NCBI GenBank assembly: GCA_010672925.1
Contig: JAAHFP010000026.1
Span: 64,001-92,984 of the forward strand
Direction of reading: 5' to 3'
Length of the DNA stretch: 28,984 nt
DNA from: Symploca sp. SIO1C2
GTDB lineage: Bacteria > Cyanobacteriota > Cyanobacteriia > Cyanobacteriales > Coleofasciculaceae
Each line of letters opens with the position of its first letter. Within the stretch, counting starts at the first letter, position 1. Below the pieces are notes generated by a model, which was given only the letters and a program-made list of their open reading frames with translations, did not search any database and was not told the DNA's origin. The position numbers were made by a program, and so were the translations under genes. Shown here in pieces: positions 4,980 to 22,802 of the stretch.

Positions 4980-5007
4980 GTAGAGACGTTGCATGCAACG
5001 TCTCTAC
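4980..5007. terminator. Perfect 28-bp palindrome GTAGAGACGTTGCATGCAACGTCTCTAC between convergent genes
   Basis: The sequence is exactly self-complementary. It lies between the 3' ends of the cytochrome gene (+) and the phosphoesterase gene (-), so it is a candidate bidirectional terminator or stem-loop. Confidence 0.5.
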
Positions 5008-5041
5008 AGGGTAGAAAATAATGGGAATATGTCAAATTTAT

Positions 5042-5791
5042 TTATTCGTCTATTTCCAAAACTAACTTGAGATTCACTACATTTTTCTTCCTTTCCCGAG
5101 GATAGCGCAAGGCGTTTTGAATATATCTGACATTATCAATTAAAGTATCATGATTGATATGACTATGGCCAAAAATATGTATTTTTGAGCCAATTAATTT
5201 TATTTGAGCAGCTAATACTGTACTAACTGATACATCTGGCAATTTTTTGAATTTTAGGTACTTCGGATTTGGTAACAACTTAGCGGTTGGCAGAAAATGG
5301 GAAAATGATATAACAGTATCTTCGTAACTTTTTAAGTACTGTTTATTTAATGAGCCAAAATATTCTGCTAAATCCATCGAAAATAACGGCCATTCACATA
5401 AATAATAATCAGCCCATTCAGGAATAATAGTATTGTTATCTAATGGTATTTTACAATGATACCAAGAAAATAAAGGAATTATCCAATGGGCTTGGAATTT
5501 ATGGGGTTTTGTGATAATACCTCTGCTACTGCACAAATTGATAATTGTATCTAATTTATGCAAAGAACTATAGCGATAATTTCTAGTCCATAATTCATGA
5601 TTTCCAGGAGTATAGAAGACGTATTTAAATTTATTTTGTAGCAAATCGAAGGTTTTGTTAATGATATCTAAATTATCAGAGATATCACCGGCAATAATTA
5701 GAGAATCATGAGGGTAGTTACCAATTTTTTTAATTAAGTTGAAATTATCTATAAAATCTGTATGAATATCTGATATTGCATATAGCTTCAT
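5042..5791 (-). CDS. Calcineurin-like metallophosphoesterase
   Basis: The motifs are ISDIHTD, AGDISDN, GNHE and a C-terminal GHSH. The gene is markedly more AT-rich than its flanks. Confidence 0.8.
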   Translation of the reverse strand: MKLYAISDIHTDFIDNFNLIKKIGNYPHDSLIIAGDISDNLDIINKTFDLLQNKFKYVFYTPGNHELWTRNYRYSSLHKLDTIINLCSSRGIITKPHKFQAHWIIPLFSWYHCKIPLDNNTIIPEWADYYLCEWPLFSMDLAEYFGSLNKQYLKSYEDTVISFSHFLPTAKLLPNPKYLKFKKLPDVSVSTVLAAQIKLIGSKIHIFGHSHINHDTLIDNVRYIQNALRYPRERKKNVVNLKLVLEIDE

Positions 5792-6002
5792 TATTACAAA
5801 AAATGGGAATTACAACTGATTTGCATTGATGGACTTACATCAGTGTACCTTCAAAGCTATCTAGGCAATAGCTCATCTGGCAACAGTAAGTCATAATTGG
5901 CTTTGGAGAGTTTAGGAATGTTTTCACCTAAACTTGTAGCGTTATACTGTGAAACTAACAAAACTAGCACAAGCTTGGGGGTGAGTGCCTTAATACCCAA
6001 CC

Positions 6003-6879: not shown

Positions 6880-7470
6880 GTGAGTTCTATGGTAGCTAAA
6901 GTTCAACAACTTACCCTTGAAGAATATCTTACTCTTGAGAATAATGCAGATATCCGATATGAATTAGTAGATGGTCAACTGATAGAGATGCCTCCAGAAA
7001 CTGATCGAAACAACTTAATTGCGCTTTATCTCCTATCAGCGTTTCTCAAATTCGTATCCTTGCATTTAATTCGTCATAAGGACACAGAAATTGTGGTCAC
7101 GGGTAGCCGTATTAGAGTACGTTTGCCTGATTTGATGGTTTTAACAGAAGAGCTTTTTACGGCGATAGGAGGTAAACGGGCAACAATTACTCCAGATATG
7201 CCTTCTCCTGCCCTAGTTGTTGAAGTTGTTTCTCCAGGTAAGGTTAATGAAGATAGGGATTACCGTTACAAGCGTTCTGAGTATGCAGCTAGAGGAATTT
7301 CAGAATATTGGATTGTAGATCCAATTAAGGCAAAAGTGACGGTTCTTACCTTAGTTGATGGATTATATGAAGAAGCAATATTTGAAGGAGATGATATTGT
7401 TCAATCAAGCATTTTACCGGATTTAAAGTTGACAGCAAGTCAAATCTTAGGGGCAGATTATGTAGTTTAA
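6880..7470 (+). CDS. Uma2 family (DUF820) PD-(D/E)XK endonuclease-like protein
   Basis: The N-terminus reads LTLEEYLTLEN...YELVDGQL, and the protein also has PDLMV, EVVSPG and EYWIVDP. It is about 190 aa. Confidence 0.75.
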   Translation: MSSMVAKVQQLTLEEYLTLENNADIRYELVDGQLIEMPPETDRNNLIALYLLSAFLKFVSLHLIRHKDTEIVVTGSRIRVRLPDLMVLTEELFTAIGGKRATITPDMPSPALVVEVVSPGKVNEDRDYRYKRSEYAARGISEYWIVDPIKAKVTVLTLVDGLYEEAIFEGDDIVQSSILPDLKLTASQILGADYVV

Positions 7471-7562: not shown

Positions 7563-8135
7563 ATGATTGCTATACCATCTGGATTTAACCTAAAAGACTA
7601 CCTTGTGCTCGAAGGTGACAGTAACATCCGGCATGAATACCGATATGGTTCAGTCTATGCAATGGCAGGAGGAAGTGATGATCATGATGAAATCTCACTT
7701 AATTTAATTGAACTCTTACGCCAGAAGGTTCGAGCTCAAGGTTGCTCAGTTCGCTCAGGTAATGTCAAAGTTAATTATGCGGATGCGTTTTTCTACTATC
7801 CAGATGCCTTCGTCACTTGTGACCCCCGAGATAGTGAAGATAGATATGTTAAACGCCATCCTAAATTGATTGCTGAAGTGTTGTCCCCTTCTACAGAAAA
7901 GTTTGATCGAGGAGAGAAGTTTGAGGATTATCAACAAATTGAATCATTGGAAGAATATGTTTTAATCGCACAGGATAAAATACAGGTGGAATGTCGCCGT
8001 CGAGTGCGAGATGAACAGGGAGAGCGATGGAAAACGGAGGTTTATGGAGCAGGTGAACGGGTGGTTTTGCAGAGTGTTGGATTGGAAGTAGCGATCGATG
8101 AATTGTATCGAGGTGTTAGTCTGAACATCGGTTAG
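7563..8135 (+). CDS. Uma2 family (DUF820) endonuclease-like protein
   Basis: The motifs are DYLVLEGDSNIRHEYRYG, PDAFV and AEVLSPST..EK..Y. It sits in tandem with the preceding Uma2 gene. Confidence 0.75.
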   Translation: MIAIPSGFNLKDYLVLEGDSNIRHEYRYGSVYAMAGGSDDHDEISLNLIELLRQKVRAQGCSVRSGNVKVNYADAFFYYPDAFVTCDPRDSEDRYVKRHPKLIAEVLSPSTEKFDRGEKFEDYQQIESLEEYVLIAQDKIQVECRRRVRDEQGERWKTEVYGAGERVVLQSVGLEVAIDELYRGVSLNIG

Positions 8136-8205: not shown

Positions 8206-9105
8206 TCAATCTCTTCCCTTCTGCATTCTGCCCTCTGCCTTCTGCCTTTTGCTATATCTGTCAATCCAATTTAGCAGTACCACTAACATAACCAACATAC
8301 CCGCAGAATAAATATCGCCTCCCCAGGAGTCGTGTAGCCAATGAAATGCATCATCTCTACCAGTGCCATAAAAGAAAGTAAGAAAAGAATTGCGGACGAT
8401 ATTAGCACTAACGCTGATAAAAATTGCCCCCAAGAAAAACAGGGTTGTCTTCTGGGCTGACTTCCAGGTACCCATCCAGTAAACTAATATCAAGCCTACA
8501 TAGAGGTTAGTAAACAACATTTTCAGTCCTGCACAGTGAGGAGCTACTTCGACAACTCGTCCCCCAACTAACAAGTTAATCCCACTAACAGTAACATCCA
8601 TCCCCAAATGAGTGAGTAAAAAGCCTGCTACACCGGCAATAAATCTTTGTAAGGGTAAGATATAAGGTGAAATTAGGTAGGGAACTGCGGTTGGTGTAGC
8701 TAAAAATATCAGTAGTAGTGGAAAACTTTGCAGCTTCAAGCCAGGAATACCTTTAAACCATAAGCAAAGACCAACTAATAACAGAGGAAAGGATAAGTTG
8801 ACTAGTTCTGATTGACCAGTTAAATAAAATAGCCCTCCTAATACCAGTAATGCAATACCCAGAGGATGGGTAGTACTTGGCAACTGATGCCACTGCTGCC
8901 GATTTTTCCAAGAGAGATAGGCGGCAAAAGGTATGCCAATCAAGCCATGACTAAAGTATTCATGCTCCAGGCTGATGGATTTGTTGAGCCAGCCATCACA
9001 CCAGTGGATGAGTAAAGGTGTATACAGAATTACCAGCAAAGCAAGGAGCAATCCGTCGAATAAGTAGCGCTCAAGGGCAAGGGGAATTTTGCTGCGATAT
9101 TGCAT
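8206..9105 (-). CDS. Exosortase-family integral membrane protein (cyanoexosortase-like)
   Basis: The protein has about 8 TM helices, a conserved Cys in VEVAPHCAGLKMLF, a downstream NIVRNSF Arg and a His. This pattern is characteristic of exosortase/EpsH. An AGGAG RBS lies 8 nt upstream of the ATG. Confidence 0.55.
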   Translation of the reverse strand: MQYRSKIPLALERYLFDGLLLALLVILYTPLLIHWCDGWLNKSISLEHEYFSHGLIGIPFAAYLSWKNRQQWHQLPSTTHPLGIALLVLGGLFYLTGQSELVNLSFPLLLVGLCLWFKGIPGLKLQSFPLLLIFLATPTAVPYLISPYILPLQRFIAGVAGFLLTHLGMDVTVSGINLLVGGRVVEVAPHCAGLKMLFTNLYVGLILVYWMGTWKSAQKTTLFFLGAIFISVSANIVRNSFLTFFYGTGRDDAFHWLHDSWGGDIYSAGMLVMLVVLLNWIDRYSKRQKAEGRMQKGRD

Positions 9106-9204: not shown

Positions 9205-10359
9205 CTACAGTTTGCCAAAAGTGATTCTTTTGAGGGAATCAACAACGTGAGTGATTTGAGCTGAGCTTATACCCGGATACATAGGTAGAGACAAAATTTC
9301 CTGGGAAAGAGTTTCGGCGTTGGGAAAGTCCCCCTTTTTATACCCCAAATATCGGTAAGCGGGTTGGAGATGACAGGGAGTGGGATAGTGAATACCGGAT
9401 TGAATCCCTGAGGCGGTAAGTTGATCTTGGATAGTCTGCCTATCTAGAGGACAAGCTGCACTGACTCGAATGACGTAAAGATGATATATGTGACCAGTAG
9501 CACTCTGATTTTGGATAGGGAAAATACCTTGGGATTGTAACGGCTCTAGGAGGGTATCATACTCTTTAGCTGCTGAGTTTCGGGATTGATTCCACTGGTC
9601 TAAATAGGGTAGCTTGACATTGAGAACCGCTGCTTGCAGAGTATCTAAGCGACTGTTAGTACCAACATCGGTGTGTAAATACTTTTTAGGTGCTCCGTAA
9701 TTACGTAGCGATCGCACTTTTTCTGCTACGGTAGCATCCTTGGTAAGTACTATGCCCCCACTACCAAAAGCTCCCAAGTTTTTACTGGGGTAAAAGCTAA
9801 AAGCAGCTGCCTTGCCAATCGAGCCTGCAATATAACCTTCCCTTTGAGCCAAGTGAGCTTGAGCTGCATCTTCAAAAATCAATAAGTCGTGAGCATCAGC
9901 TAATGCCAATAACTGGCTTGGGGAAACCATCTGACCATACAGATGTACTGGTAAAATTGCCTTAGTTTTACCAGTAATCGCTTTTTGAGCAGCTTTGAGG
10001 TCGATGAGGGCAGTATTGGGGTCACAATCCACTAAAATAGGGATTGCACCAGTTTGCATCACACCAATCAGGGTAGCAATAAAGGTATTAGTAGGTAAAA
10101 TTACTTCGTCTCCGACACCAATACCACAGGCTTGTAATCCCAGAGTGATCGCGCTAGTTCCAGAACTCACCCCAATACCGTAGTCTACACCACAAGCCCT
10201 AGCAAATGCAGCTTCAAAATCTGCTACTGCTTTACCTAAGATAAAGTCTCCTTGCTGAACTACTTTTTGGATTGCTTGTTGCAGTTGAGCTTGTATGGGT
10301 TGGTGTTGCAGCTTGAAATCTACAAAGGGAATTGTTGTTTGTTGTTTGTCATTTGTCAT
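9205..10359 (-). CDS. DegT/DnrJ/EryC1/StrS family PLP-dependent sugar aminotransferase
   Basis: The N-terminus carries the FILG-AV-FE-FA family pattern (GDFILGKAVADFEAAFARA) and a SSGTSAI block. The PLP-lysine region is FSFYPSKNLGA. The start codon lies inside an STRR array. Confidence 0.8.
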   Translation of the reverse strand: MTNDKQQTTIPFVDFKLQHQPIQAQLQQAIQKVVQQGDFILGKAVADFEAAFARACGVDYGIGVSSGTSAITLGLQACGIGVGDEVILPTNTFIATLIGVMQTGAIPILVDCDPNTALIDLKAAQKAITGKTKAILPVHLYGQMVSPSQLLALADAHDLLIFEDAAQAHLAQREGYIAGSIGKAAAFSFYPSKNLGAFGSGGIVLTKDATVAEKVRSLRNYGAPKKYLHTDVGTNSRLDTLQAAVLNVKLPYLDQWNQSRNSAAKEYDTLLEPLQSQGIFPIQNQSATGHIYHLYVIRVSAACPLDRQTIQDQLTASGIQSGIHYPTPCHLQPAYRYLGYKKGDFPNAETLSQEILSLPMYPGISSAQITHVVDSLKRITFGKL

Positions 10360-10497: not shown

Positions 10498-10995
10498 TTA
10501 GAATTTTTCTACGCCCCATCCTGGAGCTTCCTGGGCTGCTCTGAGAACAAATGCTGCTAATTTTTCTATTGTTTCCTGGGGCATCCAATATTCTGTAACT
10601 TCCCGACACCAATAGGTATCTTCGCTACCATCATAGGTCATTGGTTGCCTTAGAAAATTTACTATGCCGTTGATGTTATCACGAGGTGGTGAGGCACCAG
10701 CTAAAGTATCTAGAGCTAGAGATACTGGGGGAAATGGTAAGGTTTCTCCCCCAACGTGACAATTCAAACAATTTTTCTCAAATAGCTCTTTGCCAGTGGA
10801 CAGATCCTCTTCAGAGAAGAGCTTGGTATTACCCTGTTTATCCATATCTAGAGAGATTGGATCTGTAGCTTTAAGATAACGTCTAACATATTTGTCTACA
10901 TCAGCATGGGCAGGGGCACTGATGCTCAAGAAACTGAACACTGCAATCAAGGTGATAATTAGATAGCGAATTGATAATAATCGACGAGGCAACAT
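10498..10995 (-). CDS. psbV2: Cytochrome c-550-like protein PsbV2
   Basis: The protein has a CxxCH motif (CLNCH), a PPRDNI block and PsbV-like spacing. It has a signal peptide and lies immediately downstream of psbV on the same strand. I chose the start at Met22 of the supplied ORF; the upstream alternatives at 11031 or 11058 remain possible. Confidence 0.65.
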   Translation of the reverse strand: MLPRRLLSIRYLIITLIAVFSFLSISAPAHADVDKYVRRYLKATDPISLDMDKQGNTKLFSEEDLSTGKELFEKNCLNCHVGGETLPFPPVSLALDTLAGASPPRDNINGIVNFLRQPMTYDGSEDTYWCREVTEYWMPQETIEKLAAFVLRAAQEAPGWGVEKF

Positions 10996-11160
10996 TAGAT
11001 ATTGAAAATAATGGTGAATTGGGAGCAGCATAGTTGGTAGTTCTTCTAGGTTCAACACTCAGAAGTTAATTTATAATAGAAGGACCATCCGACTTTGCCG
11101 CTCCCTGTGAACATCGCAGGTTTTGCCAACGGACAAAATCCTAGCCAGAGAAAGCAAAGA

Positions 11161-11649
11161 TTACCGTAGGGATTTCGGACCGCCCCAAGCAGGACCCTTA
11201 ACTTTAGGCATCAAGAGAATATGACCAGATATAGCATAGAGGTCTTCTTCCGAAAGATTTCTCATCTCTGGAAAAATATCAGCACTCTTAATACTGGGGT
11301 GGAATTCACTGATTTCAATTTCCCCATCATAGGTAGTGGGATTGTTTAGGTAATCTATCAGATTGACAATGTTGTCTCGCGGTGGTAGAGCTCCAGATAA
11401 AGCCTCTGGACTAAGGCCTACATTAGGATTGGTTTTAGTGACACCTTGAGCATGACATTGAGCACAAGTATCAACAAAAAGGCGTTTGCCTTTCTTTACT
11501 TGTGTCAGCTCAAGTAAAGCTGTGTCCCCTTGTTCATTTAACTTCACCGTGCGGACTTCAGGGGGAAGTTCAATTGCCGCTGCAGTGCCAACTGCGAGTT
11601 GCAAGGCAAAAAACACAGTGGCTACAGCCAACAATATGAGTCGCTTCAT
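11161..11649 (-). CDS. psbV: Photosystem II cytochrome c-550 PsbV
   Basis: The motifs are CAQCH, LPPRDNI, NNPTTYDGE and HPSIKSADIFPEMRNLSEEDLYAISGHIL, all characteristic of PsbV. It has a signal peptide and is 162 aa. Confidence 0.85.
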   Translation of the reverse strand: MKRLILLAVATVFFALQLAVGTAAAIELPPEVRTVKLNEQGDTALLELTQVKKGKRLFVDTCAQCHAQGVTKTNPNVGLSPEALSGALPPRDNIVNLIDYLNNPTTYDGEIEISEFHPSIKSADIFPEMRNLSEEDLYAISGHILLMPKVKGPAWGGPKSLR

Positions 11650-11795: not shown

Positions 11796-11857
11796 GGAGA
11801 GTTGAGGGAGCTGGGGGAGTTAGGGGAGCTGAGGGAGCTGAGGGAGTTGGGGGAGCT
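11796..11857. repeat. Short internal copy (about 7 units) of the GGAGCTGAG-type nonamer array
   Basis: The sequence reads ggagagttgagggagctgggggagttaggggagctgagggagctgagggagttgggggagct, in the psbV upstream region. Confidence 0.85.
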
Positions 11858-11929: not shown

Positions 11930-12265
11930 ATGCCAGCCAAAAGTGACCAAATGCCCAAGCAGCCAACAGAATTACACCTGCGCCCTTTAGCTCCTTACGA
12001 AGACAGATTGCTGGCAGCGTTGGCGTTTTTCCGAACCCAGAGAAAGGCGGCAACCCAGGCTCATCATTGTTTGGCCATGTATCTGCGACAGTCCGAGAGT
12101 CGGATTATGAGCGAAGTGGACTTTTATGCTGAACTGTCGGGATTAGGCAAATTGGAGCTACTTGAACTTATTTACACCGATCCGGATAAAGCAGAAACCC
12201 TGATTGAGCAAGCGGCTGGGGTAGGGGTTAAGGACACTTTTGAAGAAGTCAAGAGTAACGAGTAA
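11930..12265 (+). CDS. Hypothetical protein (111 aa)
   Basis: The ORF has a GGAGAG Shine-Dalgarno about 4 nt upstream of the ATG. It has no recognisable motif. The last codons run into a GTAACGA x2 repeat. Confidence 0.45.
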   Translation: MPAKSDQMPKQPTELHLRPLAPYEDRLLAALAFFRTQRKAATQAHHCLAMYLRQSESRIMSEVDFYAELSGLGKLELLELIYTDPDKAETLIEQAAGVGVKDTFEEVKSNE

Positions 12266-12281: not shown

Positions 12282-12313
12282 AATTCAAAATTCAAAATTC
12301 AAAATTCAAAATT
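12282..12313. repeat. (AATTCAA)n heptamer array
   Basis: Direct reading gives aattcaaaattcaaaattcaaaattcaaaatt. Confidence 0.85.
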
Positions 12314-12566: not shown

Positions 12567-14750
12567 TTGAATCTTATGACGCCCATCAAGCGACGACAGT
12601 TCTTACAGTTTAGCGGGTCGGTGCTGGCAACTATTGGTATGAGCCTATTACCATACCAAAAGAGCGATCGCTTGGCTAGTGCTGGTGGAAATAAACCTCG
12701 CAAACTAGCGTTGCTGGTGGGAATTAATCATTATAACTATAGCGATCGCTTTGTTAATCTGAAAGGATGTATCACTGATGTGGAATTGCAGCGACAGTTG
12801 CTGATTCATCGCTATGGCTTTCACCCTCAAGATATTCTTACCCTGACTAATGCTCAAGCAACTCGCCAAGCTATTATTAAAAGTTTTGAGGAGCATTTAA
12901 TCGCCCAAGCAAAGCCAGCAGATGTGGTGGTATTTCACTTTTCGGGACACGGTATTCGTTTAACTGACTCTGACTGTGGTGCAGTCAATTGCTTCACTAG
13001 TACCCTCGTGCCTGGAGATAGTCAAGTAAACTTCGATGGTTCTGTCTCAAGCATCACCCAAGATACCCTTTGGCTGTTGATGGCAACACTGAAGACGGAA
13101 AATGTTACTTTGGTGCTTGATACCAATTATGCTGGTTGGGGTAGAGATGAAACCTTGCCTGCTGGTGCTGCGGTTCAACTTCAGGTAAGTGCCGAGGAAA
13201 AAGCCTATCAACAGCAATGTTTAGCGCGGTTGGGGTTATCTCCAGCAGAGTTTATCCACCGGAGTCAAGCTGGAATTCCTAAGGGAGTAGTAATTGCGGC
13301 AGGAGGAAACAATCAACTGTCAGCAGAACTACCTTTTAGCAACTTTCATGCTGGAGTGTTTACTTATCTGATGACACAGCATCTGTGGCAACAAACGGGA
13401 AAGGAACGGGTAGAAAGTGCGCTCGCCAATATTACTCGCTCTGTGGTACAACTTTCTACTACAGATCAAGTGCCACAATTGGCAGTTAAACCCAACTATC
13501 CTAATCAAGAGCAACCTACTTATTTTCTTGAGCCCCAGACACCTCCTGCTGAAGCCGTAATTACTAAAGTTGAAGGTAAGCAGGTAGAGTTATGGCTTGG
13601 TGGTCTTCAACCGAAGATTCTATCGGCCTTTGCTGAAGGTTCTTTACTAGCGATCATAGATCAAGCAAATCAGGAGCAAGGGCTAGTACAGTTGGAATCT
13701 CGCCAAGGCTTGGTGGGAAAAGGTAAAGTTTTGGCCGCATCTCCTCATGCTCTCCAACCAGGAGCTTTACTGCAAGAGCGAGTGCGGGGAATTCCTAAAA
13801 ATTTGACTTTACGTATTGCTATTGATCCATCCCTGGGGAAAGACCAAACAAGGGCAAAACAAGCTTTACAAGGAATCAAAGGTATCGAAGTCTTATCGCT
13901 ACAACTAGGGGAAGTTGATTATCTCCTCAGCCGTATGACTGCCCAGCATCGGCAAGAATTAGTTTCTTCACCAGAAGCAACTCTCCCACCTGTGGGTAGT
14001 ATTGGTTTATTTTCCCCAAAGCAGAAGTTAGTTCCCGACTCCTTCGGTGCCCCGGAGGAAACGATACAAGATGCAGTTATTCGCCTCCGGGCTAAACTCA
14101 AGTCTTTATTAGCAGTCCGCTTGGTAAAATTAGCACTCAATAGCAATTCATCCCGGTTGCAAGTGGCAACAACCCTAACTTTAGAGGGTGATGAACAAGC
14201 AGTAATTGATGAAGCTGTTGCAATTCGGGGTATGAACAGGAATTTAACCCAAAACCAAGCTACCAGTGCTCGACTCTATAACACTCCTACTATTAGACCA
14301 GGGCAACATGTTCAATTTCACTTTACTAATAATGAATCCTGTGAACTTTATTGCTCGATTCTGGTGATTGGTTCCAGCGCAGAAATGGTAGTTCTGTTTC
14401 CAAATCAATGGACAGCAGTAGAGGATATTATGCGAGTTGAAGCTCAGCAAACCCTCCGAGTGCCTGAAGTCGGCAAAGATAATTTCCACTTTGTTACTCA
14501 AGGACCTCCTGGAGTATTAGAGTTACTTATTATCGCCAGCAGTAAGCCACTGCGCAATACTCTTCAAGCACTGCGGAGAATTGCTTCTAGCCAAGGAACA
14601 AGGAGCGGACCAATTGCTGCCCAGGAACCGGAAGATATAATAGGCAGTTTACTTGATGACTTGGACACACAAGAAAGAGGTAACTCCAGCATTCACCGCC
14701 TTGATCTTACTCAGCTAGCAGTAATGTCGATCTCCCTTGAAGTAGTCTGA
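12567..14750 (+). CDS. Tat-signal caspase-domain (peptidase C14, orthocaspase-like) protein with substituted catalytic Cys and DUF4384-like C-terminal domain
   Basis: A twin-arginine motif (KRRQFLQF) is followed by a hydrophobic stretch. The p20-like region has LLVGINHY and a retained His in FHFSGHG. The Cys box reads VLDTNYAG where D-x-C-H-S-G is expected. The C-terminal block CELYCSILVIGSSAEMVVLFPNQW resembles DUF4384. An AAGGGGA RBS precedes the ATG. Confidence 0.75.
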   Translation: MNLMTPIKRRQFLQFSGSVLATIGMSLLPYQKSDRLASAGGNKPRKLALLVGINHYNYSDRFVNLKGCITDVELQRQLLIHRYGFHPQDILTLTNAQATRQAIIKSFEEHLIAQAKPADVVVFHFSGHGIRLTDSDCGAVNCFTSTLVPGDSQVNFDGSVSSITQDTLWLLMATLKTENVTLVLDTNYAGWGRDETLPAGAAVQLQVSAEEKAYQQQCLARLGLSPAEFIHRSQAGIPKGVVIAAGGNNQLSAELPFSNFHAGVFTYLMTQHLWQQTGKERVESALANITRSVVQLSTTDQVPQLAVKPNYPNQEQPTYFLEPQTPPAEAVITKVEGKQVELWLGGLQPKILSAFAEGSLLAIIDQANQEQGLVQLESRQGLVGKGKVLAASPHALQPGALLQERVRGIPKNLTLRIAIDPSLGKDQTRAKQALQGIKGIEVLSLQLGEVDYLLSRMTAQHRQELVSSPEATLPPVGSIGLFSPKQKLVPDSFGAPEETIQDAVIRLRAKLKSLLAVRLVKLALNSNSSRLQVATTLTLEGDEQAVIDEAVAIRGMNRNLTQNQATSARLYNTPTIRPGQHVQFHFTNNESCELYCSILVIGSSAEMVVLFPNQWTAVEDIMRVEAQQTLRVPEVGKDNFHFVTQGPPGVLELLIIASSKPLRNTLQALRRIASSQGTRSGPIAAQEPEDIIGSLLDDLDTQERGNSSIHRLDLTQLAVMSISLEVV

Positions 14751-14755
14751 TATCA

Positions 14756-14867
14756 AGGCAGGAGGCAGGAGGCAGGGGGTGAGCGAAAAAAAGGGTGGGG
14801 AGCAGAGGAGCAGAGGAGCAGAGGAGCGGAGGAGCAGAGGAGCAGAGGAGCGGAGGAGCGGAGGGAG
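14756..14867. repeat. (GGAGGCA)n then (GGAGCAG/GGAGCGG)n heptamer arrays
   Basis: Read directly, in the convergent intergenic space between the caspase-domain gene and cysK. Confidence 0.85.
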
Positions 14868-14995: not shown

Positions 14996-15033
14996 TCCAA
15001 TTCCCAATTCCCAATTCCCAATTCCCAATTCCC
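14996..15033. repeat. (CAATTCC)n heptamer array
   Basis: The sequence reads ccaattcccaattcccaattcccaattcccaattccc. The reverse-complement type (GGGAATTG)n occurs at 10401..10413, 24521..24556 and 28771..28792. Confidence 0.85.
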
Positions 15034-16810: not shown

Positions 16811-18772
16811 TTGATGATTTTTAGCAGCAATAAATCAGCATCCAAGCTTGTTAACTCTTGCAGTATATTATGGCGAAATATCACCACCAAAACCAAAAAA
16901 ATTGACCTAATTATTGCCAGCTTGTTGTTTACCGGATTGCTGCTAGGAGTAAGACAATTAGGCTGGCTACAACCGCTAGAACTAGTAGCTTTTGACCTTA
17001 TGGTTCGCATCCGTCCTGATGAAGAGCCAGACCCTAGGTTGCTAGTGGTAGGGATTACAGAGCAAGATATAGAAGCTCTCGGTCAATACCCGATATCAGA
17101 TGCAGTTTTAGCTCAAACATTAGCAAAATTATCCCAAAATCAACCGAAAGTTATCGGTTTAGATTTAGCTCGCAATATTCCGATTGAGCCCGGTTATCAA
17201 TCACTGGTAACTCAATTGCAAAATCCCAAAATTCTTGGTATTACTTTTATTGGTAACAGTGCTTTAGAAAGTGTACCACCTCCTCCAGAAATTACAGAAG
17301 AGCGCATTGGTTATAGCGATGTTTTGCTCGACCCCGATGGTGTAGCACGGCGTAACTCAATGTATACATCTACGGATACTACTAACATTTTATCCTTATC
17401 TCTTAAGCTGGCTCTTGCTTATCTGGCTTCCCATAATATTTCCCTCCAATTAACGGAATATCAGGAGCTACAGTTAGGTAATACAGTATTTCAGCCTTTA
17501 CTTGCTAATTCCGGAGGCTATCAACAGATTGATGACGGTGACTATCAAATTTTGCTCAATTATCGCTCAGCTGATAATGTAGCGCGACAAGTTACTTTAC
17601 AACAGGTTTTAAAGGGACAGATTGAACCAAGTTGGGTGAAGGATAAAATAGTGCTGATTGGTATTACTGCTCCTACGGTCAACGATTTATTTGATACTCC
17701 CTATAGTGTAGCTAAAACAGGAAATGCACAGATTCCTGGGGTAATGCTTCATGCACAGATGGTAAGCCAAATTCTCGGTGCAGTGTTGGACAATCGTCCC
17801 CTGTTTTGGTATTGGTCGGAATGGTTAGAGCTATTGTGGATTGCCCTATGGTCATCACTGGGGGGAGTTTTGGTCGCACGAGTTCGCCATCCTTTACTTT
17901 TATTACTCAGTGCTATTGCTGGGGTTGGTTGCCTCTGGGTTTGTGGGATATTGCTCTTACTTGAGGGAGGATGGATACCCTTAGCCGCACCCACTTTAAG
18001 CTTCTTACTCACTGGTATAATTGTAGGAGCTTACCAACTACAACAGTCCAAACAGCAAGAACAAATGGTGATGAGGCTCTTAGGGCAACAAACTTCACCA
18101 AAAATTGCTCAAGCTCTTTGGCAAGAACGCGATCGCTTATTAGAGTCAGGGTTATTACCAGGAGAAATCCTCACAGCTACTATGCTACTCACTGACCTGA
18201 AGGGTTTCAGCACCATCTCAGAAAAAATTTCCCCAGCAGTAGTAATGAGTTGGTTAAATGAATACTTGGCAGCGATGACTCAGGAAGTACAACAGCATCA
18301 GGGTATTATCAATAAGTTTACTGGTGATGGTATTCTCGCTGTGTTTGGAGTACCCGTACCCCGCACCACAAAGGAGGAGATCTCAGAAGATGCACAACAA
18401 GCCGTAGCTTGTGCTTTAGCCATTAGTCAGCGCTTAGAATCCCTGAATCGTAATTGGGAGACTCGTGGTTTACCAATAGTACAAATGCGGGTGGGTATTT
18501 TCACCGGTCCTGTGATGGTGGGTAGTTTGGGAAGTAAGGAACGTTTAGAATACGGCGTAATTGGTGACAGTGTTAATATTGCCTCCCGTTTGGAAAGTTG
18601 TGAGAAACACCGTCAACTCAGCAACTGCCGGATCTTGATTGCTAAAGAAACCCTAGTCTATCTCCAAGAGAAATTTCGAGTGGAGTCTTGGGGTTCTCTC
18701 TCTTTAAAGGGTAAACAGCAACAAATTGAAGTTTACCGTGTGTTGGGGAATTCTGATACTATCGAGAAATAA
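16811..18772 (+). CDS. CHASE2 sensor domain-containing class III adenylate/guanylate cyclase
   Basis: An N-terminal TM is followed by a roughly 300-aa periplasmic region and then three TM helices, which is the CHASE2 architecture. The C-terminal cyclase catalytic domain reads FTGDGILAVFGVP ... GVIGDSVNIASRLE. Confidence 0.8.
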   Translation: MMIFSSNKSASKLVNSCSILWRNITTKTKKIDLIIASLLFTGLLLGVRQLGWLQPLELVAFDLMVRIRPDEEPDPRLLVVGITEQDIEALGQYPISDAVLAQTLAKLSQNQPKVIGLDLARNIPIEPGYQSLVTQLQNPKILGITFIGNSALESVPPPPEITEERIGYSDVLLDPDGVARRNSMYTSTDTTNILSLSLKLALAYLASHNISLQLTEYQELQLGNTVFQPLLANSGGYQQIDDGDYQILLNYRSADNVARQVTLQQVLKGQIEPSWVKDKIVLIGITAPTVNDLFDTPYSVAKTGNAQIPGVMLHAQMVSQILGAVLDNRPLFWYWSEWLELLWIALWSSLGGVLVARVRHPLLLLLSAIAGVGCLWVCGILLLLEGGWIPLAAPTLSFLLTGIIVGAYQLQQSKQQEQMVMRLLGQQTSPKIAQALWQERDRLLESGLLPGEILTATMLLTDLKGFSTISEKISPAVVMSWLNEYLAAMTQEVQQHQGIINKFTGDGILAVFGVPVPRTTKEEISEDAQQAVACALAISQRLESLNRNWETRGLPIVQMRVGIFTGPVMVGSLGSKERLEYGVIGDSVNIASRLESCEKHRQLSNCRILIAKETLVYLQEKFRVESWGSLSLKGKQQQIEVYRVLGNSDTIEK

Positions 18773-19079: not shown

Positions 19080-19859
19080 ATGACTAGGACAAAGACTATA
19101 ACAACTGTAGGTAAACCCTATCTCACCTCACTGCTAAGTCTGTTTTTGTGTAGCTTGCCCATGCAGGCACTGGGGCAAGAAGTTAATCTAACAGTTCCAG
19201 AATTCAACAGAGGCACTAACCTGGAGGCTGCTTCTACTGTACAGGCACAACTACCGGATTTACCAAAGCGCCCACGGTCTGGCAGAAGGAAACCTGCTAG
19301 TGCGAGAGGACCATGTTCTCCTAGTGAAAAATCGATCACTGCTTTAATCCCCACCACCAACTTGGGGTTAACCACTAGAGCATATCCTACATTCTTTTTT
19401 TATGTTCCACCAACTCCTGCAACAGAAATGGAGTTTGTACTCATTGATGAAGAAAACCAGCGTCAGATTTACACAACTATTCTGAAGATTACTGGTAATT
19501 CTGGTATTGTTAGTTTAAATCTCCCTGCTACTGAAAATCTACCTCCTTTGGAAATAGAAAAAGAATATCATTGGTATGCTTCCCTAATTTGCAATCATCA
19601 ACAACGCTCTGGAGATATTTATGTAGATGGGTGGATTAAGCGAGTTGCCCCTGACTCACTTCTGATGGGTAAGTTAGAGAATACTTCCCTAACGGAGCAA
19701 ATTACTCTTTATCAAGAATTTGGTCTTTGGTACGATGCTCTCAAAGCTCTAGATGAGGCTCGCCGCTTGAATCCCGATGATTCAGCTTTAGTAGCGAAGT
19801 GGACAACTCTGCTGAAATCGGTAGGGTTAGAAGATATTGCCTACGAACCTCCGGTGTAG
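19080..19859 (+). CDS. Secreted DUF928-like protein
   Basis: The protein has a signal peptide and a basic Arg/Gly-rich stretch (KRPRSGRRKPASARGPCS) followed by a conserved-looking PTFFFYVP / W..L..G core. This resembles the cyanobacterial DUF928 family as I remember it. It is about 260 aa and is placed directly after a CHASE2 gene. Confidence 0.45.
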   Translation: MTRTKTITTVGKPYLTSLLSLFLCSLPMQALGQEVNLTVPEFNRGTNLEAASTVQAQLPDLPKRPRSGRRKPASARGPCSPSEKSITALIPTTNLGLTTRAYPTFFFYVPPTPATEMEFVLIDEENQRQIYTTILKITGNSGIVSLNLPATENLPPLEIEKEYHWYASLICNHQQRSGDIYVDGWIKRVAPDSLLMGKLENTSLTEQITLYQEFGLWYDALKALDEARRLNPDDSALVAKWTTLLKSVGLEDIAYEPPV

Positions 19860-19983
19860 GGTATGGGGAGTGTGGGGAGTGTGGTTTGTCAAGTAGTTAA
19901 TTTGTACGGCGAATTTGACCTGCTCCCGGCAGGATACCTGTTCCACAAGAAATTGATGAAGAGAATTTGGTGTGATATTGATG

Positions 19984-20958
19984 TCACGATTGGAGAGCTT
20001 TCAACTGCACTTCTGATAATCCCAATATTTGAGCAACTTCCTCAATTTTCATTCCTTTTTCTAGTAGATTTCGGGCAGCTTGCATTAATTGAGCCTCGGC
20101 TTGTTCCTTGGCAGCACGCTCCTGTTCTAACCGTTGCTCCGATTGCTCTAACCGTTGCTCCGATTGCTCTAACCGTTGCTCCGATTGCTCTAACTGTTGC
20201 TCCGATTGTTCTATATCAGTTAACAACCAGTTACCAGCTCGATCGCACCAGCGTAACCAATGACCAGGGACATTTTGAAATACTCCTTCCCAAATTCCCA
20301 AACCAATCTCTAAATCGGCGAACCAAACCATTGGGTTTCCTGGGTTGAGGGATTGTTCCTGATATTCTCCTTTCTCTAGCTTGAAATAGCGCAACTTTCG
20401 AGTGTAGCGGCTATAGACAATGTAGTGAGGAACCTGCAAATATTTCTCGTACACTTCTAGCTTGGCAGGGGTTTTGTTTTTAGTTTGTTTCGCTGATGCT
20501 GCCTTGGCTACCTTGGCAGTTTCATCATAAAAGCGTCCCAAATCCTCTACTTCCGTACCTGGAGACAAAAATTCAATGACCACATGAGGATTTCTGCCTT
20601 CCTGCCACACCACATAACTCCGCCGTAAGTCTTTTCCCTCATACAAATGAGGCACATCCAGCGCTAGAAACCAGTCGGGGCGTTTGTGCCACAGGGGATT
20701 GTTTAAATCATAGTAGACGTTAAGATCAGAAGCAGTAAAACAATTGTCACTCTCGTAATTGCTCAACTGGAGGCTGCGACTAAGAAATTGTGGTTGCAGA
20801 TCATGAAATTGATCGGGCAATCCTGGCTCCTCTGGATACTCACTGGGTAAATCGTACATCGTAGGCAGTGTTTCCCGGGGCAATGCTCCTGCACAGATAC
20901 TTTGTGAATGGGGAGAATCGACCTGTTCGAGTATTGGTTTGTAGTTGATGGAAACCAT
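19984..20958 (-). CDS. Uma2 family (DUF820) endonuclease-like protein with C-terminal (EQSEQRL)n coiled-coil repeat
   Basis: The motifs are TMYDLPSEYPEEPGLPDQFHDLQPQFL, VVIEFLSPGT, KYLQVPHYIVY and EYWI-like blocks. An ATG at 20958 with a GAGG RBS is preferred over the TTG at 20970. Confidence 0.7.
   Translation of the reverse strand: MVSINYKPILEQVDSPHSQSICAGALPRETLPTMYDLPSEYPEEPGLPDQFHDLQPQFLSRSLQLSNYESDNCFTASDLNVYYDLNNPLWHKRPDWFLALDVPHLYEGKDLRRSYVVWQEGRNPHVVIEFLSPGTEVEDLGRFYDETAKVAKAASAKQTKNKTPAKLEVYEKYLQVPHYIVYSRYTRKLRYFKLEKGEYQEQSLNPGNPMVWFADLEIGLGIWEGVFQNVPGHWLRWCDRAGNWLLTDIEQSEQQLEQSEQRLEQSEQRLEQSEQRLEQERAAKEQAEAQLMQAARNLLEKGMKIEEVAQILGLSEVQLKALQS
20131..20215 (-). repeat. In-frame 21-bp tandem repeat (about 4 copies, CCGTTGCTCCGATTGCTCTAA on the + strand) encoding EQSEQRL heptads
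   Basis: Direct reading shows near-identical 21-mers with single substitutions in the last copy. Confidence 0.85.
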
Positions 20959-21115: not shown

Positions 21116-22753
21116 CTACTGTACCGGAACTGTCCACCAAGCCAATCCATAGGGTTGGGATGACTCATTTTCCTGGCGCTGATACTGAACTCTGATTTTA
21201 TAGCGACCAGATTTAGGGACTTGGCAGAAAATATGTTCTACACTATCGACACGGCTAACAGAAGCACAGACACTTTTGCTAGTATTGTCTTCATCCGCTG
21301 GAACTAAAAACAGATCGAGATTATTTAAACCGCGATCGCGAAAATTTTCTCCCACATCGTAGATATTATTATCATTAGTATCTTCGAGTTCTACTATACG
21401 ATCCCAAGCTAGGGTTAGAGCCACAAAACTACCTTGTTTCAATGGTTGAGCTAATTGGTAGTCTTGGGAAGATGATTCCTCTACAGTATGATAATCCCAA
21501 CCTACTGGCGGTACTGCTGCCGTTGGATTCCACTGACCAGGGCTAAATTGCTGGTAAGCTCGGAAGACATTGAGATGTCCTGTACCCATCTGTATATCTA
21601 GGGGGATCTCAGGATTTTGGTAAGCATCGGAGTCTAACCAGTTGCGGCTATCTTTACCCTCCATAGTGCGGCTCATATTTAAATATAAGCCATCACCCCT
21701 ATCTTGGATTTTGTCAGCAGAGTTGAGTAATACTGCTTTCATGACTTCGTGGCGTCGGGAGTCTAGACTCCAGTTAAGGCCAGAAGGCAAAAGTTGGGTC
21801 TTACCTAAGAGAGTATCCTGCAAAGTGCGATCGCCATATTCTTGCAGCAGTGCTACCGAAGCTGTAATATGGGGGGCGGCAAAACTGGTACCACTTACTT
21901 CAACTACCTCACCTTCGAGGTCATAGACAGAGATTTTGCTTCCCGGTGCTACCAGACTAATGGCACGGCGAGGGCCAACATTAATTTCTCGGTTAATCAG
22001 GCGTCTGCCAATTCCTAAAGGTGCTGCACTTAAGTTAGCAAAGTCTACTTTAGTAAAGATTCCTTCTCGCTGGGTTGAGTAGGCAGTGGTAATACCATTA
22101 TAGTGATCCGTAGGGATGGGAATACCGCCGCTGCCCTGATTTCCCGCAATCACATAGAGAACATTGTGAACCCTGGCTGACCAATCGATACATTGAGTTA
22201 GTAGAGCATTACCATCCAGGATAGACTCACTCCTCGAATCTCGTTGGAGGGATTCCCCAAAGCTAAAGTTAATTGCTCTAACATCTCCCCCATTTTGCGA
22301 AGCCACATGTTGAGCCGAGAGACATTCTTCTGGTTGTCCACTTTTTAAAGGAGAACCTACCGCTGAGGCATAGAGTCTGGCTCCTGGTGCAACTCCTTTC
22401 AAGGTTTTATCATTACTAACCATTACCCCCGCCACCATTGCTGCATGGGGGTCAATATCGGTATCGGTTTTAGCCGGGGTATCCCTATAAAACACCTGGG
22501 CTGGAAGCAGTTTGTAATTCCAAGAAATTGCCTTGTCAATACCAAAGAATGAGGGTCTGCCAATTTCTACCTGACCAATAGCAATTTTACGACCAATTAA
22601 ATCATAGGGAGGTTGGTGTAACTGGTTGGCATTAATCCCCGCTTCTCCTAAGGAATCATCTAAAGCTTGAGCCGGTGCGATAAACCAGGAGGCACTCAAA
22701 CCCCAAATTAACCATGAGATTTTTTTTCCTATCTGCCGCTGAGTCAATGACAT
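21116..22753 (-). CDS. Secreted S8 family (subtilisin-like) peptidase
   Basis: The protein has a Sec signal peptide. The Ser motif is GTSFAAPHITASVALL, the oxyanion Asn block is VIAGNQG, and a subtilisin-like GVAPGARLYASAV block follows a His. An ATG at 22753 with a GGGAGA RBS is preferred. Confidence 0.75.
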   Translation of the reverse strand: MSLTQRQIGKKISWLIWGLSASWFIAPAQALDDSLGEAGINANQLHQPPYDLIGRKIAIGQVEIGRPSFFGIDKAISWNYKLLPAQVFYRDTPAKTDTDIDPHAAMVAGVMVSNDKTLKGVAPGARLYASAVGSPLKSGQPEECLSAQHVASQNGGDVRAINFSFGESLQRDSRSESILDGNALLTQCIDWSARVHNVLYVIAGNQGSGGIPIPTDHYNGITTAYSTQREGIFTKVDFANLSAAPLGIGRRLINREINVGPRRAISLVAPGSKISVYDLEGEVVEVSGTSFAAPHITASVALLQEYGDRTLQDTLLGKTQLLPSGLNWSLDSRRHEVMKAVLLNSADKIQDRGDGLYLNMSRTMEGKDSRNWLDSDAYQNPEIPLDIQMGTGHLNVFRAYQQFSPGQWNPTAAVPPVGWDYHTVEESSSQDYQLAQPLKQGSFVALTLAWDRIVELEDTNDNNIYDVGENFRDRGLNNLDLFLVPADEDNTSKSVCASVSRVDSVEHIFCQVPKSGRYKIRVQYQRQENESSQPYGLAWWTVPVQ

Positions 22754-22802
22754 ATCTCCCAATTGTTGTCCAACTGATGATGGTTACTGAGGCGTGAAAT
22801 TC

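Follow-up and report, generated by a model that had tools for sequence, protein, structure and literature searches.

A stretch of 28,984 nucleotides from the cyanobacterium Symploca sp. SIO1C2 (contig JAAHFP010000026.1, positions 64,001 to 92,984 of the forward strand; hereafter the window) carries an open reading frame (ORF) at 12567..14750 (+) coding for a caspase-like protein that we interpret as an exported pseudo-orthocaspase. The protein has four parts, namely a twin-arginine-type leader, a Peptidase_C14 fold, a beta-barrel and an alpha/beta module, and a DUF4384 beta-sandwich (Table 1). From its mechanical start, a TTG, the ORF yields 727 amino acids (aa). An ATG at 12576 encodes a Met that 109 of the 121 homologues keep, and AAGGGGA precedes it at a distance of about 10 nt, so that the true product is probably the 724-aa form. 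Residues are numbered here from the TTG unless ATG numbering (TTG minus 3) is indicated. A scan for promoters and terminators around the gene gave a site count no higher than in shuffled sequence.

Table 1. Features of the caspase-like gene and its surroundings; positions are counted from the first nucleotide of the window.
Feature	Position	Strand	Basis or remark
Pseudo-orthocaspase coding sequence	12576..14750	+	724 aa from ATG, stop codon included
Twin-arginine-type signal peptide MTPIKRRQFLQFSGSVLATIGMSLLPYQKSDRLASA	12576..12683	+	RR invariant in homologues; sub-threshold matches to Tat models; disordered in AlphaFold2 (AF2) model
Leader RR codons	12591-12596	+	Sequence
Predicted signal-peptidase site, A-S-A before Gly40	12675-12686	+	Sequence
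Caspase/metacaspase fold (Peptidase_C14, p20 and p10-like part)	12699..13484	+	Pfam, Foldseek, family profile
S1-pocket Asp71, kept	12777-12779	+	Alignment
His box FHFSGHG (His128, CAC 12948-12950)	12933..12953	+	Alignment to catalytic His position
Former Cys box VLDTNYAG (Asn187, AAT 13125-13127)	13113..13136	+	Alignment to nucleophile Cys column
S1-pocket Asp185, kept	13119-13121	+	Alignment
Remodelled loop after Cys box WGRDETLPAGAAVQLQVS, lacking GNxx[VI]R[ST]	13137..13190	+	Raw-sequence motif count; low confidence in model
Predicted small beta-barrel module, ~aa 325-413	13539..13805	+	AF2, pLDDT 85-95
Predicted alpha/beta module, ~aa 414-528, LptE-like	13806..14150	+	AF2 model
DUF4384 beta-sandwich with disordered insert	14157..14549	+	Pfam match 14295-14549; predicted sandwich start ~14157
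Predicted C-terminal helices and two terminal strands	14550..14747	+	AF2 models; conserved C-terminal alignment columns
Two tandem cytochrome c550 genes (PsbV-type, PF14495)	10498-11058, 11161-11649	-	Upstream of caspase gene; second resembles PsbV2-like paralogue
111-aa ORF, no Pfam match	11930-12265	+	310 bp upstream of caspase gene
CHASE2-sensor cyclase	16811-18772	+	
DUF928 protein	19080-19859	+	
161-aa ORF without Pfam matches	19863-20348	+	
Subtilase (Peptidase_S8)	21116-22762	-	

The initial annotation, made from the sequence alone, had proposed a caspase domain fused to DUF4384, and both matches are significant: Peptidase_C14 (PF00656) spans aa 45-306, with 224 of the 233 model positions aligned (E = 2.2e-19; score 70.5 bits, cut-off 21.4), and DUF4384 (PF14326) covers aa 577-661 (E = 3.6e-16, 59.4 bits against 27, model positions 3-81 of 81). 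The p20 motifs singled out there, LLVGINHY (49-56), GCITDV (67-72), FHFSGHG (123-129), and VLDTNYAG (183-190), were all found where it had placed them. In an alignment of 121 sequences, His128 occupies a column that is His in 100, and Asn187 occupies one that is Cys in 97, as part of D-S-C-H-S-G. The alignment is gap-free at this box, with ENVT-[LV]-V-L-D-T-N-Y-A-G in the query facing ENVT-V-V-L-D-S-C-H-S-G. A family profile compared with yeast Yca1 (4f6o; E = 6e-25) sets the Asn187 column on Cys276 of DSCHSG, and the equivalent column reads DSAHSG in the structure of the C276A mutant (4f6p). Because the family alignment is free of gaps and its column coincides with Cys276 of Yca1, Asn187 sits at the experimentally defined nucleophile position. 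The alignment and the Yca1 profile thus agree with the annotated presence of the His and substitution of the Cys, and fix the register, earlier left open among Asn, Thr, and Tyr, on Asn. No register places a Cys in the nucleophile column, the six cysteines of the protein lying at 68, 137, 142, 218, 592, and 596.

Clan CD peptidases need a His-Cys dyad, and the dyad here is His-Asn. Hence, with its nucleophile replaced by Asn, the protein is very probably devoid of cysteine-protease activity, as had been predicted, and it is a pseudo-orthocaspase in the general sense of a p20 domain with a substituted dyad residue. Its sole sequence relatives in the PDB are the solved metacaspases. Orthocaspases are prokaryotic caspase homologues with a p20 and without a p10 region, and the literature places the Tat/C14/DUF4384 family among them; the Pfam match and the structural alignments run through a p10-like segment, VVIAAGGNNQLSAE...GVFTYLMTQHLW, which aligns weakly with SGSKDNQTSADA...GAMSHAF of Yca1.

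The leader begins with MTPIKRRQFLQF, with the motif KRRQFLQF; 17 uncharged residues come next, then a c-region containing Lys and Arg, and A-S-A just ahead of Gly40. It thereby presents all the sequence features of a twin-arginine translocation (Tat) signal, that is, an RR-x-F-L core, a moderately hydrophobic, uncharged h-region, a basic c-region, and an AxA site. The paired arginines (RR) are invariant in all 121 aligned homologues and are also found in nearly all of 150 broader representatives whose N-terminus is present. Two Tat-signal models, TIGR01409 and PF10518, match the leader and nothing else in the protein, with scores that are considered below, and residues 1-38 are disordered in the AF2 model (predicted local distance difference test, pLDDT, <50). 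We regard export of the pseudo-orthocaspase by the Tat route, to either the periplasm or the lumen of the thylakoid, as likely. In one loop of the caspase domain, Cys137 and Cys142 (12975-12977 and 12990-12992) make up a C-x4-C pair that could form a disulfide, which would fit an extracytoplasmic location; the two columns co-vary across the family, with Cys in 69 and 70 of the 121 sequences.

A full-length AF2 model built on 76 sequences reached a mean pLDDT of 81.8 and a predicted template modelling (TM) score of 0.82. Foldseek comparisons retrieved AtMC4, AtMC9, GSU0716, Yca1, TbMCA2, and MALT1 with E-values down to 4e-14 over 300-380 columns, at a probability of 1.00 and target-normalised TM scores of 0.5-0.68. 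The caspase fold, p10-like part included, is predicted to be complete to about aa 306. Since both the C14 match and the predicted fold reach this point, the domain between p20 and DUF4384, earlier put at about 300 aa, shrinks to about 220-270 aa, and structure prediction resolves it into a putative small beta-barrel followed by an alpha/beta module. Modelled separately (pLDDT 75.7), the C-terminal 419 aa comprise these two modules, the DUF4384 sandwich with its disordered insert, and C-terminal helices with two strands, the last of which end in the family-wide conserved ...LAVMSISLEVV. The barrel has only weak generic matches among solved structures, to the N-terminal barrel of F1/V1-ATPase subunits. 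Structure comparison of this model revealed no enzyme fold in the C-terminal 419 aa; the modules there are similar to LptE-like lipoprotein folds and to sandwiches of the envelope, adhesion, or carbohydrate-binding kinds.

The nearest homologue, from Symploca sp. SIO2D2, is 97% identical, and the close homologues are all cyanobacterial. The 120 best homologues are likewise cyanobacterial, full-length (about 715-785 aa), and endowed with C14 and DUF4384. Naming dyads by the residues at the His and nucleophile positions, the 24 nearest homologue clusters all have a substituted dyad (HN, QN, QS, QC, HS, YS, YR, YK, or YT), and the clusters farther away are HC. Together with the query they make up a clade of 25 clusters at 90% identity, drawn from Symploca, Allocoleopsis, Waterburya, and metagenome genomes, with 50-55% full-length identity across genera. 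Within this clade the His128 column is H in 4, Q in 5, and Y in 16 clusters, compared with a uniform H among HC members; in the 78%-identical sisters it is Gln, and the nucleophile column contains N, S, R, K, T, or C. The Asn variant is limited to five Symploca-type clusters, and the organism is a Symploca relative (Coleofasciculales), so that the Nostocales, in which a survey of the Cys-to-Asn change had been envisaged, were the wrong frame for it.

An exhaustive representative search recovered 462 family representatives at E < 1e-30, of which the best 150 include 105 HC proteins and a second block of about 30 YS/YG/FS proteins at 34-38% identity. No full-length family member, HC and published YS proteins included, lacks the leader, the middle modules, or DUF4384. 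The combination of features that had made the protein seem a special variant is in these respects a family-wide one, and the His that it had stressed is unconserved in the clade (H in 4 of 25).

The lineage was placed with a neighbour-joining tree built from 178 full-length sequences, and bootstrap support was computed on a subset of 69. The 25-member query clade and the YS/YG/FS block are each monophyletic in 100/100 replicates; the two are joined in 0/100, and in 100/100 some of the HC proteins group with the query clade to the exclusion of that block. The published YS/FS p20 sequences (2019 supplement: Nostoc sp. T09, Coleofasciculus, Moorea, and Cyanosarcina) find their best matches in the YS/YG/FS block, which is therefore the published YS clade. 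A search seeded with one of its canonical members returned 118 homologues, all of them Y-S and all keeping the Arg of a GNLRVRS loop, with the RR motif aligned in 116 of the 118; they include a Symploca protein (SIO1A3) and an Allocoleopsis protein. In copy counts that are anecdotal and minimal, from a listing of related loci composed mostly of HC paralogues and lacking the closest Symploca loci, one 9.26-Mb genome has at least one canonical YS copy, one query-clade copy (P0005), and two HC copies, and Symploca sp. SIO2C1 has at least a QN protein (P0002) and an HC paralogue (L068). As the three types share genomes or genera, the query type is an extra paralogue and not a replacement.

Taken together, the alignments and trees indicate that the query lineage lost its catalytic residues separately from the YS clade, having arisen from active exported HC orthocaspases. 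Membership of the YS clade was rejected on the His-Asn dyad, the 0/100 support for a common clade, the published fragments matching the other block, and the differing motif counts given below; the TAT-like RR and AxA extension of that clade is also present in the query and in active HC members and does not discriminate. We also rejected membership of the YN clade. This clade of multicellular nitrogen-fixing cyanobacteria has a Tyr-Asn dyad, carries a conserved Trp shortly ahead of the Tyr, and lacks a C-terminal domain (PMC6426788), whereas the query reads DVVVFHFSGHG without the Trp, has His in place of Tyr, and possesses a long C-terminal region with DUF4384. Its nearest relatives are of the YS, YR, QS, and HC types, not YN.

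The gene appears to be under constraint. The ratio of nonsynonymous to synonymous divergence (dN/dS) is 0.19 against the SIO2D2 orthologue (97%) and 0.24 against that of SIO2C1 (78%), the latter at a dS of about 0.53, and it is alike in every domain; the gene is therefore maintained by selection. With the nucleophile lost and dN/dS this low, the non-proteolytic role first suggested for the protein remains a sensible reading. Of the positions conserved in 90% or more of HC proteins (n = 122), only about 10 are relaxed in the query clade; in ATG numbering these are His125, Cys184, Gly162, Phe166, Leu181, Arg191, Gly192, Arg197, Asp251, and Gly602. Phe166 has become Trp in 25/25 query-clade members. 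The S1-pocket aspartates D68 and D182 (ATG numbering), on the other hand, are invariant in the query clade (25/25), in HC proteins (122/122), and in the canonical YS block (148/148), and Cys65 (ATG numbering; Cys68 from the TTG) is kept in 22 of the 25.

The loop after the Cys box aligns ambiguously and has a low pLDDT in the model, and we therefore counted its motif on the raw sequences, as the pattern G[NSG]xx[VIFY]R[STA] within 25 residues after the box. It is present in 93 of 122 HC and 124 of 148 canonical YS proteins, and in none of the 25 query-clade members. Glu254 (13326-13328; 251 in ATG numbering), in the p10-like 'SAD' stretch, is an Asp in 111 of 122 active members and a Glu in 147 of 148 canonical YS and 17 of 25 query-clade proteins, a convergent Asp-to-Glu change in the two pseudo-lineages.

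The topology of the query clade, in which key nodes have 100% support, comprises a group A, {QC, QS, QS} with {HN, HN, HN, QN, QN}, and a group B, in which an HS protein stands with sixteen Y-x proteins. Parsimony with HC outgroups gives a His-Cys ancestor for the clade, followed by at least three losses of the His (twice to Gln, once to Tyr) and at least three of the Cys. Since the lost loop motif and Trp166 are common to all 25 members, we infer that the clade had already ceased to need catalysis at its base, earlier than the decay of the His and Cys. His128 itself appears to be an ancestral leftover and not a maintained feature, because its column is divided among H (4), Q (5), and Y (16) and the 78%-identical sisters have Gln. 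A single nucleotide change separates the Asn187 codon, AAT, from AGT, a Ser codon.

Downstream of the caspase gene lie CysK, on the opposite strand, the CHASE2 adenylate/guanylate cyclase, the DUF928 gene, and the subtilase. CysK is the sole neighbour in common with the 97% orthologue; at the 77-78%-identical orthologues the neighbourhood of the window is not conserved and the cytochrome c550 genes are absent, and we accordingly dismissed synteny with psbV as a functional clue, holding it to be probably coincidental. In the YS/YR branch of the query clade a giant ORF follows the caspase gene; at locus L003 this ORF is a TPR-CHAT protein, which is succeeded by an HC paralogue (L003:15272-17542). 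Across the family, tblastn with a CHAT domain placed a CHAT gene in the flanks of 42 of 88 sources, or about 1 per 20 kb of flank. These genes mostly abut the caspase gene: 11 are directly upstream and co-directional, 10 just downstream, 6 convergent, and 9 divergent. At L003 and L009 they were confirmed as giant TPR-CHAT-type ORFs. Most CHAT-adjacent loci (L003, L009, L020-L086) encode intact His-Cys enzymes, and TPR-CHAT adjacency, which we had entertained as a trait of the pseudo-clade, is thus a family-wide one, and is absent from the query window. We found no publication linking CHAT genes with Tat/C14/DUF4384 genes.

The intergenic regions on both sides of the caspase gene contain short tandem repeats with units of 7-9 bp at 11806-11857 (GGGAGCTGG x5.8), 12282-12313 (AATTCAA x4.6), 14799-14864 (GGAGCAGA x8.2), and 14997-15033 (CCAATTC x5.3), which we liken to the short tandemly repeated repetitive (STRR) sequences known from filamentous cyanobacteria. 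Elsewhere in the window, two adjacent genes for Uma2-family putative restriction endonucleases occupy 6880-7470 and 7563-8135 (+), and genes for an exosortase (EpsH family; 8206-9105, -) and a DegT/DnrJ/EryC1-type aminotransferase (9205-10359, -) adjoin. The G+C content falls to 0.315 at 5001-6000, compared with about 0.43-0.46 in the rest of the window, in a stretch overlapping an ORF for a calcineurin-like phosphoesterase (5042-5791, -).

Considering all of the above, we think it reasonably probable that the protein is an exported pseudo-protease from a younger, HC-derived lineage and that it works as a non-catalytic binder, most plausibly as a decoy or partner of active paralogues. The twin-arginine leader would carry the protein, already folded, through the plasma or thylakoid membrane, with signal peptidase probably trimming about 36 residues. 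The mature form would keep the caspase fold and an acidic S1 pocket for Arg or Lys (Cys68, Asp71, and Asp185), and would be incapable of cysteine-protease chemistry, its nucleophile being Asn and the Arg-containing GNxxVRS loop having gone as well; behind the caspase fold would follow three predicted non-enzymatic modules, the beta-barrel, the LptE-like alpha/beta unit, and the DUF4384 sandwich. The lineage would have been born by duplication from active Tat-exported His-Cys orthocaspases and not from the housekeeping YS type, catalysis becoming dispensable first and the His and Cys then decaying piecemeal in separate branches. The protein probably now binds basic peptide segments non-catalytically and, most plausibly as a decoy or partner, would modulate active paralogues of identical architecture that are present in related genomes.

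Several points weigh against this proposal. The decoy or partner role is the most plausible one that we can draw from retained and lost features, from analogy, and from co-occurrence in related genomes, and no active paralogue or CHAT gene is found within about 12-14 kb of the gene in the window. Small unicellular cyanobacteria have the pseudo-variant only, so that no active partner is needed there (PMC6426788). The leader model scores fall just below threshold (TIGR01409, 15.3 against 16.7; PF10518, 17.7 against 22.7), and thus the Tat leader of the initial annotation stands as regards KRRQFLQF, the hydrophobic stretch, and the RR motif (121/121) and falls short as regards these two profiles. 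The lack of activity is itself deduced from sequence, the trees are neighbour-joining ones on corrected identities and not maximum-likelihood ones, and that the GNxxVRS loop serves activation or processing is a conjecture. Some of the same observations would suit a non-catalytic exported protein unrelated to other proteases, acting in the periplasm, envelope, or lumen as a scaffold for structure or ligand binding only: the C-terminal modules are like envelope, adhesion, or carbohydrate-binding sandwiches and LptE-like folds, no protease partner is encoded near the gene in the window, and unicellular species manage with a pseudo-variant and no active partner (PMC6426788). We hold this to be a lesser but genuine possibility. 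A bolder version of our own proposal, which we advance as speculation and rate as doubtful, is that the Tat-leader/caspase/DUF4384 proteins constitute an extracytoplasmic caspase system that has gone unrecognised, composed of an active HC protease, the ancient YS pseudo-enzyme, and the younger query lineage, and genetically coupled to CHAT proteases, often of the TPR-CHAT type, with the Csx29/Csx30 pair discussed below as a precedent; loss of GNxxVRS would first have locked the query lineage in an uncleavable, zymogen-like state, the His and Cys would have gone piecemeal later, and the lineage would now act as a dedicated decoy or regulator of the active paralogue.

It is improbable that the protein is no more than an orthologue, in Symploca, of the housekeeping YS pseudo-orthocaspase (SyOC/sll0148 type), with a role at the thylakoid or photosystem II that its psbV-like neighbours reflect. 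The TAT-like leader, the box VLDTNY with its similarity to the canonical VLDTSY, and the two Cytochrom_C550 genes 0.9-2 kb upstream on the opposite strand would accord with this, but the two clades are never united (0/100) and the query nests among HC proteins (100/100), the published YS/FS sequences best match the canonical clade, whose 118 members are strictly Y-S and keep a GNLRVRS that is absent from the query, canonical and query-clade copies coexist in the same genome or genera, and the psbV neighbourhood vanishes at the 77-78%-identical orthologues. The intact His128, Asp71, Asp185, and overall fold, together with purifying selection, could be taken to mean that the protein is still a hydrolase, using His128 with a non-canonical nucleophile, or that it undergoes Asn-based self-cleavage. 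This is very improbable: the His has turned into Gln in the 78% sisters and into Tyr in the majority of clade members, and any of N, S, R, K, T, or C fills the nucleophile position, so that neither residue is under constraint, and there is no alternative conserved Cys or Ser near the pocket. A decaying duplicate without function, to which the drift of both dyad positions and the degenerate post-Cys loop might point, is more improbable still, given an intact 724-aa frame, a dN/dS that stays at 0.19-0.24 throughout the domains with dS reaching 0.53, retention of the clade across several genera at 50-55% full-length identity, and relaxation restricted to about 10 positions.

The general class to which the protein belongs is already published, including pseudo-orthocaspases with a TAT-like leader, HN variants, and DUF4384 fusions (PMC6426788, PMC8283722). 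What is added here is of modest novelty: an apparent independent origin from active exported orthocaspases, a piecemeal decay of the dyad after loss of the loop, and the association with CHAT genes. Pseudo-orthocaspases are widespread in cyanobacteria, and within this one exported caspase family the dead state has come about at least twice. The query lineage appears to record the order of the decay, the loop motif having been lost in all members and the His and Cys at different times in each branch, and the natural series HC, QC, HS, HN, QN, YS, and so on offers a means of probing what matters in the non-catalytic function. Caution is called for in taking a retained His as a sign of function, and the annotation "caspase family protein" should not imply protease activity here.

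Among known systems, Yca1 (4f6o/4f6p), AtMC4 (6w8r), AtMC9 (8a53, 9n3d), TbMCA2 (4af8), and GSU0716 (3bij) are the best matches to aa 45-306; their dyad columns align with those of the query at an identity of 17-21%, but the leader and all three C-terminal modules are missing from them, and their Cys is present except in engineered mutants. MaOC1 of Microcystis aeruginosa is, like the query, a prokaryotic caspase homologue; it is the orthocaspase characterised biochemically, the reference for the activity of an active relative, and is reported to be specific for basic residues (PMC7935541). Unlike the query, it is there described as active, with a catalytic Cys169, and as cleaving a cytoplasmic antitoxin (PMC7935541). 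Microcystis also carries HC members of the Tat/DUF4384 family (L063, L065, and L066).

The pseudo-caspases cFLIP and TbMCA4 are partners or regulators of active relatives (PMC6426788). As dead paralogues that derive from active enzymes and coexist with them, cFLIP-L and Trypanosoma brucei TbMCA4 offer a functional analogy to the query, although they are not orthologous to it and are cytoplasmic; TbMCA4 is moreover processed by an active metacaspase, whereas the query has no basic loop motif that could serve such processing. As regards the CHAT link, one group of Csx30 proteins of type III-E CRISPR-Cas systems has DUF4384, and Csx30 is cleaved by the TPR-CHAT protease Csx29 (bioRxiv 10.1101/2022.08.17.504292). 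The query has no CRISPR context and its window no CHAT gene, but the pairing of DUF4384 with TPR-CHAT recalls the CHAT genes near family orthocaspases, and Csx29/Csx30 is a possible precedent by analogy.

Klemencic et al. (2019) described cyanobacterial pseudo-orthocaspases as mostly Y-S, with a YS clade bearing a TAT-like RR and AxA extension, for which a thylakoid or photosynthesis role was proposed (PMC6426788). The one member with a knock-out study, SyOC (sll0148, Y-G) of Synechocystis, is linked to oxidative stress tolerance (PMC7889975). A 2021 survey lists HN, QC, and YR among 16 rare dyad variants, and reports DUF4384 on 19 true orthocaspases and 4 pseudo-orthocaspases (PMC8283722). 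No further domains were identified in YS pseudo-orthocaspases by the 2019 study (PMC6426788); current Pfam models detect DUF4384 in all five canonical YS proteins (P0224, P0233, P0245, P0254, and P0265) at 24-36 bits, one of them below the 27-bit cut-off, and as all five align with the query over the full length, the whole architecture is in common. Both the query and the YS proteins thus have a p20 with a substituted dyad, the RR/AxA leader, the S1 aspartates, and C14 with DUF4384 in 700-800 aa. They differ in that the YS clade has a fixed Y-S dyad (118/118), keeps GNLRVRS, and is near-universal in cyanobacteria, whereas the query clade, of about 25 clusters at 90% identity, has a drifting dyad and has lost the motif.

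Closest of all are the HC Tat/DUF4384 orthocaspases, such as L068 of Symploca sp. SIO2C1, P0100, and L003:15272-17542, with 45-53% full-length identity to the query. They have the same leader, fold, middle modules, DUF4384, and C-terminus; they keep the His, the Cys, and the motif D-S-C-H-S-G-G-G-T-R-G-N-x-x-V-R-S, where the query has its Asn, Trp166 (ATG numbering), and a remodelled loop. By all appearances, these active enzymes are the immediate evolutionary source of the query lineage.

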